From an uncultured virus (IMG/VR IMGVR_UViG_3300002219_000864) (lineage: Duplodnaviria; Heunggongvirae; Uroviricota; Caudoviricetes), in the IMG/VR virus record IMGVR_UViG_3300002219_000864, positions 58,959-78,958 of that record: a stretch of DNA of 20,000 nt, one strand, 5' to 3'. Of this stretch, positions 1,492 through 6,523 are shown piece by piece; the stretch's first letter is position 1, and the number at the start of each line of letters is the position of its first letter. The translations under genes were made by a program, and so were the position numbers. The notes under the pieces were generated by a model, which was given only the letters and a program-made list of their open reading frames with translations, did not search any database and was not told the origin of the DNA.

Positions 1492-3639
1492 ATGTTTACC
1501 ACACCGAAGCAAAAATTGATTGTCGCCATATCAAACGATTTTCTAAAATCTTTTTCGGGGATTCCCAAAAAAGAACAGGGTAAGGTCCGAGAGTTTTTTG
1601 AGAAATTCCGCGTGAACCCCGCATCGCCTGCCATTCAGTATGAGAAAATTCAGAAAGCAAAGGATGAAAACATTCGATCTGTCAGGATTGATCAGGATTA
1701 TCGAGGAATCATTTTAAAACCGTCCTCTGGAAACGTTTACATGCTCCTTTGGGTGGACCATCATGACAAAGCCTATGCCTGGGCAGAAAACCGACTTTTT
1801 TCTATTAACGCAGAGACGGGCGGCCTCCAGGTGATGAATATTGAAGAACAAAGCCTACCCGAAAAAGCGGCTCAATTGAAGGATTCAGGCTGGAATCTCT
1901 TCGATTCTTACAAAGATATGGACTTGATGCGGCTGGGCGTCCCCGAAATCCTTTTGCCGCTTGTGCGCCAACTTAAGTTAAAGGAAGATCTGGATGCATT
2001 TGAAAACCAATTGCCCCAGGAAGCCTATGAAGCCCTCTTTTTTTTGGCCGAAGGATTTTCCATGGAGGATGTCCTCAAGGATCTTGAAAAAGAACAAACA
2101 CCGCTACAAGTAGATACCGCTGATTTTGTTACAGCGCTTGAAAATCCAGACAGCAAGCGAAGGTTCCATGTTGTTGAAGGGGCTTTGGAACTGGCGGAAA
2201 TTTTGAATTCACCATTGGAGTTGTGGCGAATATTTCTCCATCCTTCTCAGAGAAGCATTGTAGAAAAGGAATATAATGGTCCCGTCCGTGTCCTTGGCGG
2301 AGCAGGGACCGGCAAAACAGTTGTTGCGATGCATAGAGCACGATGGTTAGCGGAAAAGGTATTCGTAAGGGAGAACGATCGCATATTGTTTACGACTTTC
2401 ACCAAGAATCTGGCGGCGGATATCAAAGAAAATCTCAGGAAGCTGTGTTCGTCCGATACCATGAAGAAAATCGATGTTATCAATCTAGATGCATGGGTGA
2501 TTCAGTTCCTGAAAAAACATGGCTATAGCTATACTTTGATTTTCCAGGACAATACTGGGGGGTACTGGCAGAACGCCCTAAATATGGCTCCGGCAGATAT
2601 GGATATAGACGAATCCTTTTATCCTCAGGAGTGGTCGCAGGTTATTCAAGCACAAGGAATAACGACTTCCGATGAATACCTGAAAGCTTCTCGGGTAGGA
2701 CGGCAGAGAAAATTGACCCGTCCCATGAAACAAAAAATATGGTCTGTATTTGAGGAATATCGGGCACAATTGAATGCAAAAGGCCTGAAGGAAATGACGG
2801 ATGCCGTGAGAGACGCCCGGATCATCTTACAAAACAAAGGTGATGTTTTGCCTTATCAAGCCATTATTGTGGATGAGGCCCAGGATATGGGCATGGAAGC
2901 CTTTAAGCTTATACGGCAAATGATACCCGAGTCGAGGGGGGAATCGAAAAATGAACTTTTCATTGTCGGGGATGCCCACCAGAGAATCTATCGGCACAAA
3001 GTTGTCTTGAGCCGCTGCGGTATCAATATCAGGGGGCGAAGCAAGAAACTTAAAATCAATTATCGCACAACGGAAGAAACTCGCAAATGGGCCACTAAGC
3101 TGTTGGAGGGTACAGCCGTTGACGATCTTGACGGCGGTGTGGACTCGCAAAAAGGTTACAAATCGCTGCTTCACGGTGATTCACCGGAGGTCCAATGCTT
3201 CAATTCCTTTACAGAGGAAATACAGTACATTGCTGCCTACCTGAATGAATTGGTCAAGGAGGGGGTTGATGTGAGTACGGTTTGTCTTGTGGCGAGAACA
3301 AATGATCTTATGAAGCAATACGAATCAGCCCTTCAGGAAAGGGGTGTCAAAACATATCTGGTCAAACGGAGCGTCGCCGAGGACCGAAAAACAGCTGGTT
3401 TGCGCCTGTCCACTATGCATCGCGTCAAGGGACTGGAGTTCGATCATGTGATCATTGCAAGCATCAATGATGGTGTGGTGCCATTGCAATCGTCTTCATT
3501 TTGGGATCCTTCTTCCGATCGGGCGGAAGAGAGCGAGAATTTAGAGAGAGCCCTGCTTTACGTTTCCGCGACACGGGCTAAGAAAAAGGTACTGATGACC
3601 AGTTATGGGGTAAAGAGCAGATTTTTAAACAATGGTTGA
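1492..3639 (+). CDS. UvrD/Rep-family SF1 helicase with an N-terminal RelE/ParE-like domain
   Basis: SF1 motifs: LHPSQ, GGAGTGKT (Walker A), TTFTKNLA, IVDEAQD (Walker B), VGDAHQRIY, INYRTT, STMHRVKGLEFD, LYVSATRAKK. The first ~100 aa (ISNDFLKSFSGIPKKEQGKV...IRSVRIDQDYRGII...LLWVDHHDKAY) are RelE-like. GAGGAG RBS; ATG directly follows the upstream TAA. Confidence 0.9.
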   Translation: MFTTPKQKLIVAISNDFLKSFSGIPKKEQGKVREFFEKFRVNPASPAIQYEKIQKAKDENIRSVRIDQDYRGIILKPSSGNVYMLLWVDHHDKAYAWAENRLFSINAETGGLQVMNIEEQSLPEKAAQLKDSGWNLFDSYKDMDLMRLGVPEILLPLVRQLKLKEDLDAFENQLPQEAYEALFFLAEGFSMEDVLKDLEKEQTPLQVDTADFVTALENPDSKRRFHVVEGALELAEILNSPLELWRIFLHPSQRSIVEKEYNGPVRVLGGAGTGKTVVAMHRARWLAEKVFVRENDRILFTTFTKNLAADIKENLRKLCSSDTMKKIDVINLDAWVIQFLKKHGYSYTLIFQDNTGGYWQNALNMAPADMDIDESFYPQEWSQVIQAQGITTSDEYLKASRVGRQRKLTRPMKQKIWSVFEEYRAQLNAKGLKEMTDAVRDARIILQNKGDVLPYQAIIVDEAQDMGMEAFKLIRQMIPESRGESKNELFIVGDAHQRIYRHKVVLSRCGINIRGRSKKLKINYRTTEETRKWATKLLEGTAVDDLDGGVDSQKGYKSLLHGDSPEVQCFNSFTEEIQYIAAYLNELVKEGVDVSTVCLVARTNDLMKQYESALQERGVKTYLVKRSVAEDRKTAGLRLSTMHRVKGLEFDHVIIASINDGVVPLQSSSFWDPSSDRAEESENLERALLYVSATRAKKKVLMTSYGVKSRFLNNG

Positions 3640-3700
3640 AACAGTGCTATGAAGCTTTTAGTGGACAACAAGTTTGATATCATATCCGATTATTGTGGAG

Positions 3701-3757
3701 AGAATACAAAGCAATCCATCCGACGTCTCACAGCCGCCGCTTATTTTTGTGTTAGAT
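3701..3757 (+). mobile_element. Degenerate integron attC-like site 1 (57 bp)
   Basis: AGAATAC-AAAGC-AATCCATC...GCTTATT-TTTGT-GTTAGAT has the 7-5-8...7-5-7 attC layout. The core site GTTAGAT is a perfect GTTRRRY. The inverse core has lost AAC (reads TAC) and the L boxes pair only partly. Confidence 0.65.
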
Positions 3758-4319
3758 GCAGATGAAAACAATCGCTGACATAGAGCATTACTTCCGCGAC
3801 CGAGCAAAGGAGCTGAAAGCGTTCTCACAAAATGGTACGCCATGGGAATTTCTCTGTATGGCCGCCTTCGTCGAATACTTATCCAAACTCGTGTATGGTC
3901 AAGATAATGGTGCTCTCGGATTCAAAAATTTCGTCATAGATTACTTGGCTAAAATCAATCCCCTGTATCAGAACTTCAAATATAAGAACGGCGAATCCGA
4001 CTTGAACAAACAGATGTATCATATATTGCGATGTGGCATTGTGCATTCGTTCTCACTTGTTCCTGACAAAAAAAGCATCAAGGAGGGTGGCCGGCTGCGG
4101 TCTATCGTTCTAGCCCACAAGAAATCTGGTCAATCCCATCTCAGCGCTTACTCTTCCTGCGATGCTCATGACGCCGCCATATTTATTTCAGAGGATTTTG
4201 CCTGCGATATTGAGCTCGTAGTTGACCACATATTCGGTGAAGCAAAGACTTGCCCCGCTTTGAGGCGCAATATTGAAACATGGTTAAGCACCCAACCTCC
4301 AATAACTGGAGGTATCTAA
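3756..4319 (+). CDS. Hypothetical cassette protein with HEPN-like RxxxxH motif (start may be 3762)
   Basis: 187-aa, apparently helical ORF containing MYHILRCGIVHSFS (R-x4-H). It starts at an attC core site and its stop lies inside the next inverse core site. Confidence 0.7.
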   Translation: MQMKTIADIEHYFRDRAKELKAFSQNGTPWEFLCMAAFVEYLSKLVYGQDNGALGFKNFVIDYLAKINPLYQNFKYKNGESDLNKQMYHILRCGIVHSFSLVPDKKSIKEGGRLRSIVLAHKKSGQSHLSAYSSCDAHDAAIFISEDFACDIELVVDHIFGEAKTCPALRRNIETWLSTQPPITGGI

Positions 4320-4372
4320 TGATGCTATGCGCGCCTCATCGCGCACCGCTCCAGTTGATGGCCATGTTATGT
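4314..4372 (+). mobile_element. Degenerate integron attC-like site 2 (59 bp)
   Basis: Begins ATCTAAT, which contains the TAA stop and is 6/7 complementary to GTTAGAT at the start of the same cassette. Ends GTTGATG-GCCAT-GTTATGT. L-box pairing is poor. Confidence 0.55.
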
Positions 4373-4395
4373 ACGTAAGGTGGAGTCCATAAACT

Positions 4396-5214
4396 ATGGA
4401 GCAGGAAAAAATTAGATTCGGTCTTTGTGATGAATGGGTAATTTTTCTGGAAAGGCACGGGAAGTTTGTAGAGAAACAAAAACGGCTCATTGATACTTTT
4501 CATAACATTTTTATAAGAGACGTGGAAACAAGCAACTCAGCCGATTGCGTTGTGTTTATGTTGGGTCGCCTCGCTGTCGAGGATTTCATGGAGATTCTTC
4601 TGCTCTGCGGGAATGGCTATGGCATAGGCGGTATGAAGCTTCTGCGGGGGCTCTATGAAAAAGCTGTTACTTTAGGCTACATTGCAAAAAATCCTGACAA
4701 GGCGGAGCAGTTTCTTGAATACTATTACGTTCATCAGGGCAAGCATTTCAATCATGCAAAGAAGGTATTTGCCATGGATGAGTTTTTGTCCTCTTCTCAA
4801 ATCGAGCAGATTGAAAGTGCCTACGAGAAAGCCAAACAGAAGTATCAAGAAGTGCTATGCAAGAAGTGCGGGACCACACGAACACGGATTTCATGGTCGG
4901 AGTTGGACCTTCTCTCAATGGCACGTAAAGCCGGTCTTGATAAATTGTACCTGCAATGCTATTACGATCCGACGCTTCAGGCACACACAACTTTTTCCTC
5001 GCTTGCATCTAAGTTGAAAGTTAAGGAAAACGGGCATGTAAGCTTTGATGAAAGCCCTCAGCACGATAGGGCGGACGTGGCACTGATAGGTGCGCATCAA
5101 GTAATCCTGCACGTACTCGACACCGAAAACGGCTATTTCAAAATGGGGCTTGAGAACGAAATACAGGAGCTATTTATGGACTTCATGTACGTTTGGAAAA
5201 AAGAGCTTGGATGA
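4396..5214 (+). CDS. DUF5677-like (HEPN-related helical) cassette protein
   Basis: ILLLCGNGYGIGGMKLLRGLYEKAVTLGYI and SWSELDLLSMARKAGLDKLYLQCYYDPTLQAH resemble the DUF5677 pattern (LxRxxxE ... Y...H). It has a CKKC insert and an AAGGTGGAG RBS. Confidence 0.7.
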   Translation: MEQEKIRFGLCDEWVIFLERHGKFVEKQKRLIDTFHNIFIRDVETSNSADCVVFMLGRLAVEDFMEILLLCGNGYGIGGMKLLRGLYEKAVTLGYIAKNPDKAEQFLEYYYVHQGKHFNHAKKVFAMDEFLSSSQIEQIESAYEKAKQKYQEVLCKKCGTTRTRISWSELDLLSMARKAGLDKLYLQCYYDPTLQAHTTFSSLASKLKVKENGHVSFDESPQHDRADVALIGAHQVILHVLDTENGYFKMGLENEIQELFMDFMYVWKKELG

Positions 5215-5274
5215 GCAGGCGCTGAACCCGATCATGGCCCTATCATACCACTCCGAGTTGGCTCTATGTTATAC
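5209..5274 (+). mobile_element. Degenerate integron attC-like site 3 (66 bp)
   Basis: GGATGAG-CAGGC-GCTGAACC...AGTTGGC-TCTAT-GTTATAC keeps exact attC spacing. The L boxes pair 5/7 after removing the extrahelical base. The inverse core is strongly decayed but still overlaps the stop codon. Confidence 0.6.
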
Positions 5275-5290
5275 ACGAGGGACTAAGAAA

Positions 5291-5875
5291 ATGCAATGTG
5301 ACAACGAAGCAAACGTTTATAAGCTACTTGGGGAGTTCTGCGTTCAATTCGAGCAGGTTTGCCGGTCGATGGAGGTTTGCATTCGCACAATCCTTGCCAA
5401 TCAGGGTTTGACCAATGAACGAGTTCACGAGATTCTTCTGGCTGACTATACCGCTGAACCCCTCCGCAAGTTGCTCCAGAGCCTTGTTGGGGAAGTGTTA
5501 GCCAAGGACTCTCAAGATGTCAAAATTTGCTCAAAGGTTTTCGGCAAACTTCAAGAGTTAACCAGCGAGCGAAACGACATTGTGCACTCCAAGTGGTTCA
5601 TTCTCGATGTGACAAATGACGTCGGAACCAAGAATTTCCTAGTCCTGGGTGAGAAGCTACATGCAAACAGGGAAGGAGCGGCTACAAAAAGGTTAAAACT
5701 CGATCGGGCCAGACTGGAGAAAAACATCGCGAAATGCAAAGAGGCCAGCATTTTGCTGAAGTTGCTCATGCGGTGTATTCTTGGGTTACGAAAGCTCAAT
5801 GAATGCTATAAATTAAACAAGGACGGGCTCACATGGAGCAAAGATGCTCTGAGACCCTTGAAACTGAACGTATAA
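5291..5875 (+). CDS. Hypothetical cassette protein with HEPN-like RNxxxH motif (194 aa)
   Basis: ATG at 5291 follows a GAGG RBS and an attC core site. Contains LGEFCVQFEQV near the N-terminus and LTSERNDIVHSKW (R-N-x3-H). Confidence 0.75.
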   Translation: MQCDNEANVYKLLGEFCVQFEQVCRSMEVCIRTILANQGLTNERVHEILLADYTAEPLRKLLQSLVGEVLAKDSQDVKICSKVFGKLQELTSERNDIVHSKWFILDVTNDVGTKNFLVLGEKLHANREGAATKRLKLDRARLEKNIAKCKEASILLKLLMRCILGLRKLNECYKLNKDGLTWSKDALRPLKLNV

Positions 5876-5938
5876 TAAGGCGCAGAAGCTGATCGACGCG
5901 AAGGGACGACCGCCGCCCTCGCTAAATCTGTTTTATAC
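5870..5938 (+). mobile_element. Degenerate integron attC-like site 4
   Basis: GTATAAT contains the stop and is 6/7 complementary to GTTATAC at this cassette's start. It is followed by AAGGC-GCAGAAGC-TGA, a typical attC left arm. The right arm is decayed (GCTAAATCTGT-TTTATAC), so the right boundary is uncertain. Confidence 0.55.
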
Positions 5939-6221
5939 TCTCTATCAACTGGCAATCTTCAGCAATTCATTATTCAAAATGTTAAGTGGAGTAGCAGAAA
6001 ATAAATAATCTAATATTTCACAAAAGATGTCTGAGGCATTCTACAATCGCTTGCTAAATAGGTAAATATGCAGAGGTCTTACTCATTAATTCCTAAAATC
6101 AATAAATGTCTTGTCGATCAGGGGCTGCAATTCAATAGCGAACCCCTTCGTGTCTCTGCACTGGCCACATGTCTTCGCACGTATGCACCCTACTTCCCCA
6201 GTTTCTGAAAGATAGCGTTAC

Positions 6222-6446
6222 TCACACCCTCTCCCCCTTCCTGGCCTTCACACCCGTCCACCGTCTCAACACAGATGGGAAAAACGCGATTCTCTTCTGA
6301 GGCGGCCGTCCCCGGCGTGTCTCAAACACCACCCCTGCTTCGATCAGTTCCTTTTTCATACTGCGCACCTTCCGCTCGCTGCAGCCCAGGCACCGGGCAA
6401 CGTTCGCCCACCCTGTTATGGCTTCCTCGATATCGTGTATGGTCAT
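6222..6446 (-). CDS. Small HTH DNA-binding protein (excisionase/late regulator-like, 74 aa)
   Basis: ITGWANVARCLGCSERKVRSMKKEL is HTH-like with a basic wing (RRGRPP). ATG at 6446 follows GGAGTGGAG, preferred over 6491. Confidence 0.6.
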   Translation of the reverse strand: MTIHDIEEAITGWANVARCLGCSERKVRSMKKELIEAGVVFETRRGRPPQKRIAFFPSVLRRWTGVKARKGERV

Positions 6447-6523
6447 GCTCCACTCCCTGGTACGGTTATTCTCCCAGGGGGCCATGAACATGACGCGCTG
6501 GTGTGTTTGCCTGGTGTTGCGAT

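Follow-up and report, generated by a model that had tools for sequence, protein, structure and literature searches.

Integron gene cassettes are delimited by attC sites, in which an inverse core (R'', RYYYAAC) is paired with a core (R', GTTRRRY) in an imperfect hairpin bearing the L''/L' stems, and the first bases of each cassette are the TTRRRY from its own core. [quoted passage not shown] In addition, cassettes have been shown experimentally to insert outside integrons and to be expressed near resident promoters, and it has been suggested that they "could also be domesticated" (in the sections cited of 10.1101/2022.09.11.507474). Both attC sites and cassettes have been reported in phage genomes, with phage attC sites recombined by IntI1 in the results drawn on here (Qi et al. 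2023, PMC9892861), and defence genes have been reported in integron cassettes (the part cited of bioRxiv 10.1101/2024.07.02.601686). Integron cassettes are now viewed as a reservoir of defence genes, and their natural domestication has been proposed and seldom documented. The locus described here occupies positions 3701-5936 of a 20,000-nucleotide (nt) stretch of DNA, hereafter the window, which forms the rightmost 20 kb of a record of 78,958 nt, itself classed as a provirus, from an uncultured member of the Caudoviricetes (IMG/VR IMGVR_UViG_3300002219_000864). This block is probably a fossil three-cassette integron array, lying behind the last gene of a defence operon in the defence island of a Desulfobacterota prophage. 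Cassettes outside integrons are already known, and here they occur as fossils within the defence island of a prophage. The locus offers a concrete natural case, in which two attC sites can be traced to living families and appear to have been disabled by point mutation, with the proteins conserved.

Like CALIN, single attC sites lacking integron-integrases (SALIN) and other genome-inserted cassettes, the block consists of small, co-oriented open reading frames (ORFs) and apparently attC-derived spacers, with no integrase nearby and with a resident transcription unit next to it. The attC sites of CALIN are detectable by model, at least two of them in the absence of an integrase, whereas the window block has none that is detectable. 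Nor does the provirus record hold an integrase and attI beside the array, as a complete integron would. The block is a decayed derivative of a CALIN-type cluster, and not a member of that class. The preprint on cassettes outside integrons proposes, in its cited sections, deletion by replication slippage as the route to site inactivation (10.1101/2022.09.11.507474), whereas the sites of the window seem to have been inactivated by point mutation. The phage integron components resemble the window in the presence of cassettes and attC sites on temperate phages or prophages, but in the results cited their attC sites were recombined by IntI1 (PMC9892861), whereas those of the window are decayed and the host phylum is Desulfobacterota. 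The defence cassettes of the third study are likewise small, streamlined defence-type genes, but those described in the part cited reside in active, sedentary chromosomal integrons (10.1101/2024.07.02.601686), whereas those of the window would be fixed in a prophage defence island and have a presumed function in defence.

Junctions A to D and their attC relatives

The block comprises four junctions (A to D) and three genes, with 76-nt spacers between the three ORFs and a 116-nt gap between the UvrD-like gene upstream and ORF1.

3701-3757, + strand: junction A, read as a decayed attC of family A; R'' position AGAATAC at 3701-3707 (TAC for AAC), R' GTTAGAT at 3751-3757 intact; 85-91% identity to genomic attC sites
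3762-4319 (alternative ATG at 3756), + strand: ORF1, HEPN-like, 185 aa; invariant R92-x4-H97; 92 homologues
4314-4372, + strand: junction B, putative remnant; ATCTAAT at 4314-4320 (AAT) over the ORF1 stop codon, end GTTATGT at 4366-4372
4396-5214, + strand: ORF2, DUF5677 protein with a CxxC insert, 272 aa; PF18928 at 79.6 bits (cut-off 27.1) over residues 60-213; 240 homologues
5209-5274, + strand: junction C, read as a decayed attC of family C; R'' position GGATGAG at 5209-5215 (GAG for AAC), R' GTTATAC at 5268-5274
5291-5875, + strand: ORF3, HEPN-like, 194 aa; invariant E93-R94-N95-x3-H99 in five relatives and the window's own sequence
5870-5936, + strand: junction D, half-remnant; GTATAAT at 5870-5876 (AAT) over the ORF3 stop codon, end GTTTTAT at 5930-5936

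Direct reading finds GTT at the R' side of 4/4 junctions and, at the R'' side of A, B, C and D, the triplets TAC, AAT, GAG and AAT that a sequence-only reading of this DNA, made earlier by a model, had reported. Its claim that four attC-like sites have lost the AAC holds for A and C, whose descent is indicated by homology, and likely for D, where a half-site can be aligned; for B, it has only the boundary heptamers on its side, with no match to either family.

A DNA search of 401 Desulfobacterota genomes first brought up the relatives of junctions A and C, with about 20 matches to window 3706-3762 (78-88% identity) and several more to 5217-5270; a separate DNA search, of 401 genomes of one order, gave few matches. 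Two further copies of 5217-5272, 84% alike, lie in other contexts on contigs of the probable source metagenome. The family-A relatives share a 57-nt element that opens with nnnnAAC, continues with AAGGCAATCCAGCGGAC...GCCGCCGCTGATTTTTGT and ends in GTTAGnn, and those of family C share an element of about 70 nt with an nCTAAC start, a GTGGCCC/GGGCCAC apical stem and a GTTnGnn end. Family profiles were built from 10 (A) and 4 (C) genomic relatives, with the window excluded from both. Against the 78,958-nt provirus, the family-A profile returned 3706-3756 at E 2.8e-13 (next match, E 0.14) and the family-C profile 5216-5271 at E 2.7e-10 (next match, E 0.62). The AAC of the relatives falls exactly at the window's TAC in junction A and at its GAG in junction C. 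Junction D has an 82% direct repeat in common with junction C (5878-5894 and 5217-5233, respectively), and its 5' arm including the AAT (ATAATAAGGCGCAGAAGCTGATCG) aligns to family-C positions 6-29 at 4.9 bits. Other DNA matches, to the inner parts of B and D, lay inside coding sequence and were rejected as chance.

The relatives themselves were assessed with a covariance model (R1) that was built here, and is not that of IntegronFinder, from 21 real and unrelated attC sites at nine loci beside ORF1 homologues in metagenomes; the alignment of these sites displays the R''/L''/L'/R' structure, with compensatory changes in 10/15 pairs. R1 finds 62 sites in 80 ORF1-family loci, at 19-76 bits (positive controls, 21-76 bits) and with 59/62 on the strand of the gene, and it is specific enough to give a single match in 1.08 Mb of loci bearing the UvrD operon, 9 kb from that operon. 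Seven of the 10 family-A relatives are recognised in full and one more in part (15-36 bits), as are 3/4 of the family-C relatives (16-45 bits). In genome G401, family-A attC sites at 465-521 and 2817-2873 lie at most 3 kb from an integron integrase scoring 473 bits (NCBIfam cut-off 265), and genome G263, which has copies of both families, contains two more integrases above the cut-off. These sequence comparisons mark the relatives of junctions A and C as genuine attC sites, and the junctions themselves as diverged copies of two attC families of Desulfobacterota genomes.

The integron of G401 (L222, G401:C1:1-12000) is a complete one of the Desulfobacterota, in which the integrase (3492-4433) and the family-A sites are all on the minus strand, so that the integrase has the same orientation as the attC sites instead of the usual divergent layout.

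The borders of the genes provide a second line of evidence. Since the TTRRRY that opens a cassette comes from its own core, this hexamer should complement the inverse core of the same cassette. ORF1 is flanked by G|TTAGAT on its 5' side and ATCTAA|T on its 3' side, and ORF3 by G|TTATAC and GTATAA|T; each pair is complementary at 6/6 positions, and in each the downstream hexamer consists of the last codon and TAA. A scan of 368 provirus ORFs of at least 60 aa, for a G and the reverse complement of the last codon and stop immediately before the start, was positive only for ORF1 and for a spurious antisense ORF of 72 aa; ORF3, with its ATG at 5291, follows the rule by direct reading. The ten bases GTTAGATGCA at the 5' boundary of ORF1 are also the 5' ends of cassettes in two ORF1-family loci (L091 and L102), and GTTAGAT is the upstream core in five of the ORF1-family loci with a recognised attC.

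The decay of junctions A and C can be read against their relatives, at columns that 90% or more of these have conserved. In junction A, 4/31 such columns are mutated, including a G to T change in each L arm, and 5/8 consensus pairs are kept, with a minimum free energy (MFE) of -2.0 kcal/mol as against -4.6 to -14.2 kcal/mol in the relatives. In junction C, 6/32 columns are mutated and 7/12 pairs kept; the changes include GGG to ATA, which destroys the apical stem, and the MFE is -5.7 kcal/mol as against -11.2 to -17.6 kcal/mol. The sequence and structural features lost here are present in all of the recognised relatives.

The three genes and their conservation

The sequence-only reading was right that the three ORFs, all on the + strand (3756/3762-4319, 4396-5214 and 5291-5875), are uninterrupted and co-oriented with the helicase operon, and that two of them have a ribosome-binding site: Shine-Dalgarno-like motifs precede ORF2 (AGGTGGAG) and ORF3 (GAGGGA), and none precedes ORF1. 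Each ORF is full length relative to its own family. The nearest homologues share 75-81% identity with ORF1 (P0002-P0005), 79-85% with ORF2 (P0100-P0106) and 68-71% with ORF3 (P0094-P0095). Pairwise and profile comparisons among the three revealed no relationship, none matches a PHROG family, and the 80 ORF1-family loci never include relatives of ORF2 or ORF3. Single-sequence scans of viral contigs gave no relatives of the UvrD-like gene, ORF1 or ORF2, and for ORF3 one marginal match of 32 residues.

None of the 92 homologues of ORF1 is functionally named, and one of them (P0045) has a precomputed Pfam domain, PF10049. The invariant residues are Q86, Y88, R92, G94, H97 and S100, with R92 and H97 invariant in 72 sequences. 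The AlphaFold2 (AF2) model of ORF1, at a predicted local distance difference test (pLDDT) score of 95.7, has an extra small β-sheet and finds weak structural matches in HEPN toxins, the HEPN domains of Csm6 and AbiV (Z 4.3-5.1), mixed with other helical bundles. R1 places attC sites at ORF1 homologues in 24/80 metagenome loci, 15 of which were not in training; these sites lie at the gene or within about 160 nt of it, often on both sides, except at locus L159. Profile search of the 401 Desulfobacterota genomes gave weak partial matches to ORF1 in only three. The ORF1 family, as judged from sequence, appears to be a frequently cassette-borne, unannotated family of HEPN-like proteins. A protein collection entry for the ORF1 of the window is 153 aa long, with an internal Met start; the longer ORF1 (start at 3762 or 3756) is preferred because homologues of 178-200 aa span 95-100% of the 187-aa reading.

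ORF3 displays the motif ERN-x3-HSK, with R94 and H99 invariant in six sequences, and a protein atlas offered unnamed clusters only. Its AF2 model is mediocre (pLDDT 68.4) and resembles the sacsin HEPN domain (Z 6.7) and HepS, AbiA and HEPN toxins (Z 5.0-5.6), again among other helical bundles. The HEPN motif R-x4-6-H is present in both ORF1 and ORF3, and neither has sequence-level membership in Pfam, PADLOC or PHROG families. In AbiV (9bj5), HepS (9oik) and the toxins of HEPN-MNT pairs (7ae2/8xdj), as in the models of ORF1 and ORF3, R-x4-H ends a long helix of a helical bundle (Z 4.3-5.6); the window genes differ from these proteins in that no MNT-type antitoxin gene adjoins ORF1 or ORF3, and in the additional β-sheet of ORF1. 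With the motif present and the predicted fold suggestive, both proteins may be termed HEPN-like, and they would most likely act as stand-alone ribonucleases of HEPN type, in the manner of abortive-infection proteins or toxins.

For ORF2, a profile search of 391 genomes gave one match, and a search of its profile against PDB sequences gave none below E 0.09. One of its four genomic relatives (L209, 70% DNA identity) is a bounded cassette: an attC of 18.8 bits ends in G|TTAGCC, 26 nt ahead of the ATG, and 28 nt past the stop codon stands GGCTAA|C.

Over the columns that 90% or more of the relatives have conserved, ORF1 differs at 0/32, ORF2 at 1/47 (R to K) and ORF3 at 3/47, so that 4/126 conserved protein columns are changed as against 10/63 conserved columns of the attC remnants. 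The three genes would on this pattern still be under selection for function. An alternative is that the whole block, genes included, is a decaying neutral relic whose ORFs are merely not yet broken. ORF1 has no Shine-Dalgarno motif, unlike its cassette-borne relatives, ORF3 departs from its family at the three columns just given, and in the cited portion of a preprint five of nine candidates reduced plaquing and so gave phage defence, a set that does not include a DUF5677 ORF of Bacillota (PMC12632615). Full-length ORFs, the catalytic-type R-x4-H retained in both HEPN-like genes, and the lower rate of change in the proteins than in the attC sites make such a relic unlikely.

Relation to the upstream defence operon

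The genes upstream of the block, and the spacer before junction A, are as follows.

1-1491, + strand: 3' part of a DruE-like DEAD/MrfA-Zn helicase of 2104 aa with a ZorE-like HNH tail, whose start lies upstream of the window; PADLOC DruE1 2.8e-109; Pfam DEAD, Helicase_C and MZB
1492-3639, + strand: UvrD/GajB-like helicase, the final conserved gene of the methylase, DruE-like, UvrD-like operon; Pfam UvrD-helicase 2.8e-26, PADLOC GajB 5.6e-36
3640-3700, no strand assigned: 61-nt spacer from the UvrD stop codon to junction A, read directly; without a terminator-like site and without homology to the closest relatives

The sequence-only reading had cast the ORFs as possible accessory effectors of the upstream defence system and proposed a comparison of orthologous loci for variable genes after the UvrD gene. 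That comparison has now been made. Among 80 loci with a homologue of the UvrD-like gene, tblastn (E <=1e-3) finds relatives of ORF1, ORF2 or ORF3 in 0/80, the genes downstream of UvrD differ in 46/46 loci with at least 1.5 kb there, and DNA homology to the four closest relatives stops at 3608-3637, that is, at the UvrD stop codon. Taken together, these results indicate that the block is a lineage-specific addition of independent modules and that ORF1-3 are probably not part of the upstream system, so that the proposed accessory role finds no backing; the 80 ORF1-family loci, which never combine ORF1 with the other two, speak against it as well.

That the three ORFs are nevertheless co-transcribed with the methylase, DruE-like and UvrD-like system and functionally dependent on it is distinctly unlikely. 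They are oriented like the operon, the UvrD stop codon lies 116 nt before the first of them, ORF1 has no recognisable ribosome-binding site or promoter of its own, and HEPN nucleases are common effectors of defence systems. The sequence-only reading had also noted no terminator in 3640-3755, and none was indeed found in the whole of 3300-6500 (0 terminator-like sites, with 3.0 expected from shuffles). Set against this are the 0/80 co-occurrence, the variable downstream content and the end of homology described above, the finding of ORF1 relatives as solitary cassettes with no helicase, and the mutual unrelatedness of the three families. Promoter-like sites were no commoner than in shuffles (5 found, 4.5 expected). 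Because no terminator is predicted between the operon and the ORFs, read-through transcription from the operon is possible.

The history of the block may be pictured as follows. The cassettes derive from integron-type gene pools, and an integrase would have brought them into the phage genome, whether together as a small array or through insertion at a secondary site behind the resident operon, a route with experimental precedent (10.1101/2022.09.11.507474). Point mutations have since built up in the attC sites, in the AAC of R'' and along the arms that form the stem, and would have fixed the genes, which presumably persist because they are useful, as HEPN-type abortive-infection or toxin-like nucleases and one further protein (DUF5677, ORF2). 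With no terminator in its path, transcription of the operon could reach the ORFs and so mimic the Pc promoter of an integron. A bolder version, which we hold to be rather unlikely, is that the defence operon serves as a surrogate integron promoter, with captured HEPN-type cassettes locked in place and co-expressed as a second, abortive-infection layer that backs the methylase-helicase system; if true, it would give integron gene pools a natural route into the modular growth of phage defence islands.

The operon stands in a well-defined setting. The provirus carries major head, portal and endolysin genes at record 23-37 kb, left of the defence island, and genes for SSB, a primase-DnaB-type helicase, a Gp3-like factor, DUF5131 and SbcCD-like proteins at window 7.9-19.3 kb. 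Between these two gene sets lies the + strand island, with a 1569-aa type IIG-like methylase, the 1834-aa TmtA (Tiamat), a DUF932 protein, the 2104-aa DruE-like helicase up to window 1491 and the 715-aa UvrD/GajB-like helicase at 1492-3639. In most of the 80 loci, a DruE-like helicase of about 2100 aa lies directly upstream of the UvrD-like homologue, with a type IIG-like methylase where the flank reaches. Membership of the UvrD-like gene in Gabija was considered and rejected: GajB is its best profile (5.6e-36), but it has no GajA OLD-family nuclease partner, and the gene before it encodes the DruE-like helicase, not GajA.

The UvrD/GajB-like helicase bears an N-terminal extension of about 250 aa and recurs in the 80 loci across Desulfobacterota, Cyanobacteriota, Bacillota, Vibrio, Francisella-like metagenome-assembled genomes (MAGs) and one Methanococcoides MAG. 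The TmtA (Tiamat, 3.2e-252) and DUF932 genes, at provirus 47275-54119 (L001:6275-13119), separate the methylase from the DruE-like helicase; the two directly adjoin each other in most relatives (e.g. L014, L040 and L066). The insertion looks like one defence gene nested in the operon of another system.

Mobility of the cassettes and points of doubt

The structure-based evidence concerns the present state of the sites. R1, run on the provirus (79,900 nt) with filters off, gave 0 matches at E <=10; when each junction was searched alone, its best scores were 0.7 bits for A, 4.6 for B (with a different alignment), about -1.3 to -1.1 for C and 0.3 for D. Half-site sequence profiles made from the same 21 attC sites did not single out the junctions in the provirus, and Rfam held nothing relevant, its sole match being a chance sR39 at E 0.068. 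The fold z-scores are +1.3/-0.7 for A, -2.0/-2.4 for B, +0.7/+0.9 for C and -0.8 for D, as against a mean of -3.8 in the 21 real sites. As single strands, A, C and D are no more stable in their folds than shuffled sequences and D has no hairpin, the z-score of B is due solely to an apical, local GC hairpin at 4328-4345, and pairing of R'' with R' is absent from every fold of the four junctions. By structure alone, 0/4 junctions would count as attC, and the verdict that there are no attC sites here, first suggested by the single-stranded folds, was overturned by homology. Structure-based attC finders would miss such fossils, which family-specific sequence profiles recover.

The claim of the sequence-only reading that the cassettes are locked in place is a reasonable and well-supported one, given the stem mutations, the low R1 scores (0.7 and -1.3 bits for A and C) and the absence of an integrase from the record; the decay goes beyond the loss of AAC. 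Excision by an integron integrase is no longer to be expected, and the genes would be fixed. It is very unlikely that the sites are instead working attCs of an unusual type, with cassettes still mobile. Such sites would account for the GTT at the R' (cleavage) side of 4/4 junctions, the perfect complementarity of ATCTAA with TTAGAT and of GTATAA with TTATAC, and the AAT seen also in one genomic relative (L178), but the R1 scores (-1.3 to 4.6 bits, as against 15-76 for most true sites and relatives), the unpaired R''/R' in all folds, the shuffle-like folding of A, C and D, and the mutation of stem positions that are conserved in relatives all argue for decay. Metagenome contigs over the region include none without cassettes and have no joints within 3701-5936, a weak point, as it concerns contigs only. 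Least credible of all is a chance resemblance to attC in ordinary intergenic spacers: the structure-based tests all fail and half-site profiles of unrelated attCs do not pick out the junctions, but the family-profile matches (E 2.8e-13 for A and 2.7e-10 for C), to relatives that are recognised attC sites beside an integrase, refute it for A and C and leave it possible for B alone.

Several observations nonetheless weigh against a fossil three-cassette array, or against parts of that reading. Junction B matches neither family A nor family C and has no recognisable relative, and the family-C alignment of junction D, which reaches E 0.0049 when the search is confined to the four junctions, lacks significance genome-wide, at E 1.6. 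ORF2 fails the boundary rule: the expected R'' ACATAAC (the complement of TTATGT) is absent from junction C, so that the 5' boundary of ORF2 stays unverified. The boundaries of ORF1 are tighter than those of its cassette-borne relatives, in which R'' lies 4-12 nt past the stop codon and a ribosome-binding site stands between R' and the ATG; in the window, the last codon and stop form ATCTAA, and GTTAGAT abuts the ATG with no spacer for such a site, as the result either of deletion or of coding sequence that accounts for part of the resemblance. A family-C relative in another genome (L178; G174:C54, near position 1500) has AAT in its inverse core and goes unrecognised by R1, so that such decay is not confined to the provirus. 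The integron integrase profile TIGR02249 has no match in the 78,958-nt provirus record, and an integrase may exist outside the record. As to the genes, the HEPN assignment combines a motif with Z scores of 4-7, a range described as common for helical bundles, Foldseek found nothing for the ORF1 model in the PDB at E <=0.001, and ORF2 and its L209 relative are saturated in synonymous divergence (dS), giving no usable ratio of nonsynonymous to synonymous change (dN/dS).

Some minor features of the junctions may be added. At junction B, a 13-nt inverted repeat (4300-4312 and 4349-4361, 11/13 complementary) pairs the PPITGG codons of ORF1 with the spacer and gives 4290-4372 (83 nt) a fold z-score of -3.6; an AAC...GTT pair lies inside, with no attC-like geometry. 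The ATGTTAT motifs were considered by eye as dif/Xer-like sites, as was an extended -10 promoter, and both readings were dropped because the required partner elements are absent. A 386-nt contig from a freshwater metagenome of a separate study is identical to window 5857-6242, which covers the end of ORF3, junction D and an AT-rich non-coding region; the same run had nothing else matching the 3.5 kb compared. Downstream of junction D, 5936-5985 (TACTCTCTATCAACTGGCAATC... and ...ATTCATTATTCAAAATGTTAA) has short matches of 94-95% in two Desulfobacterota genomes (L207 and L208), and may be a further conserved non-coding element or another cassette boundary.

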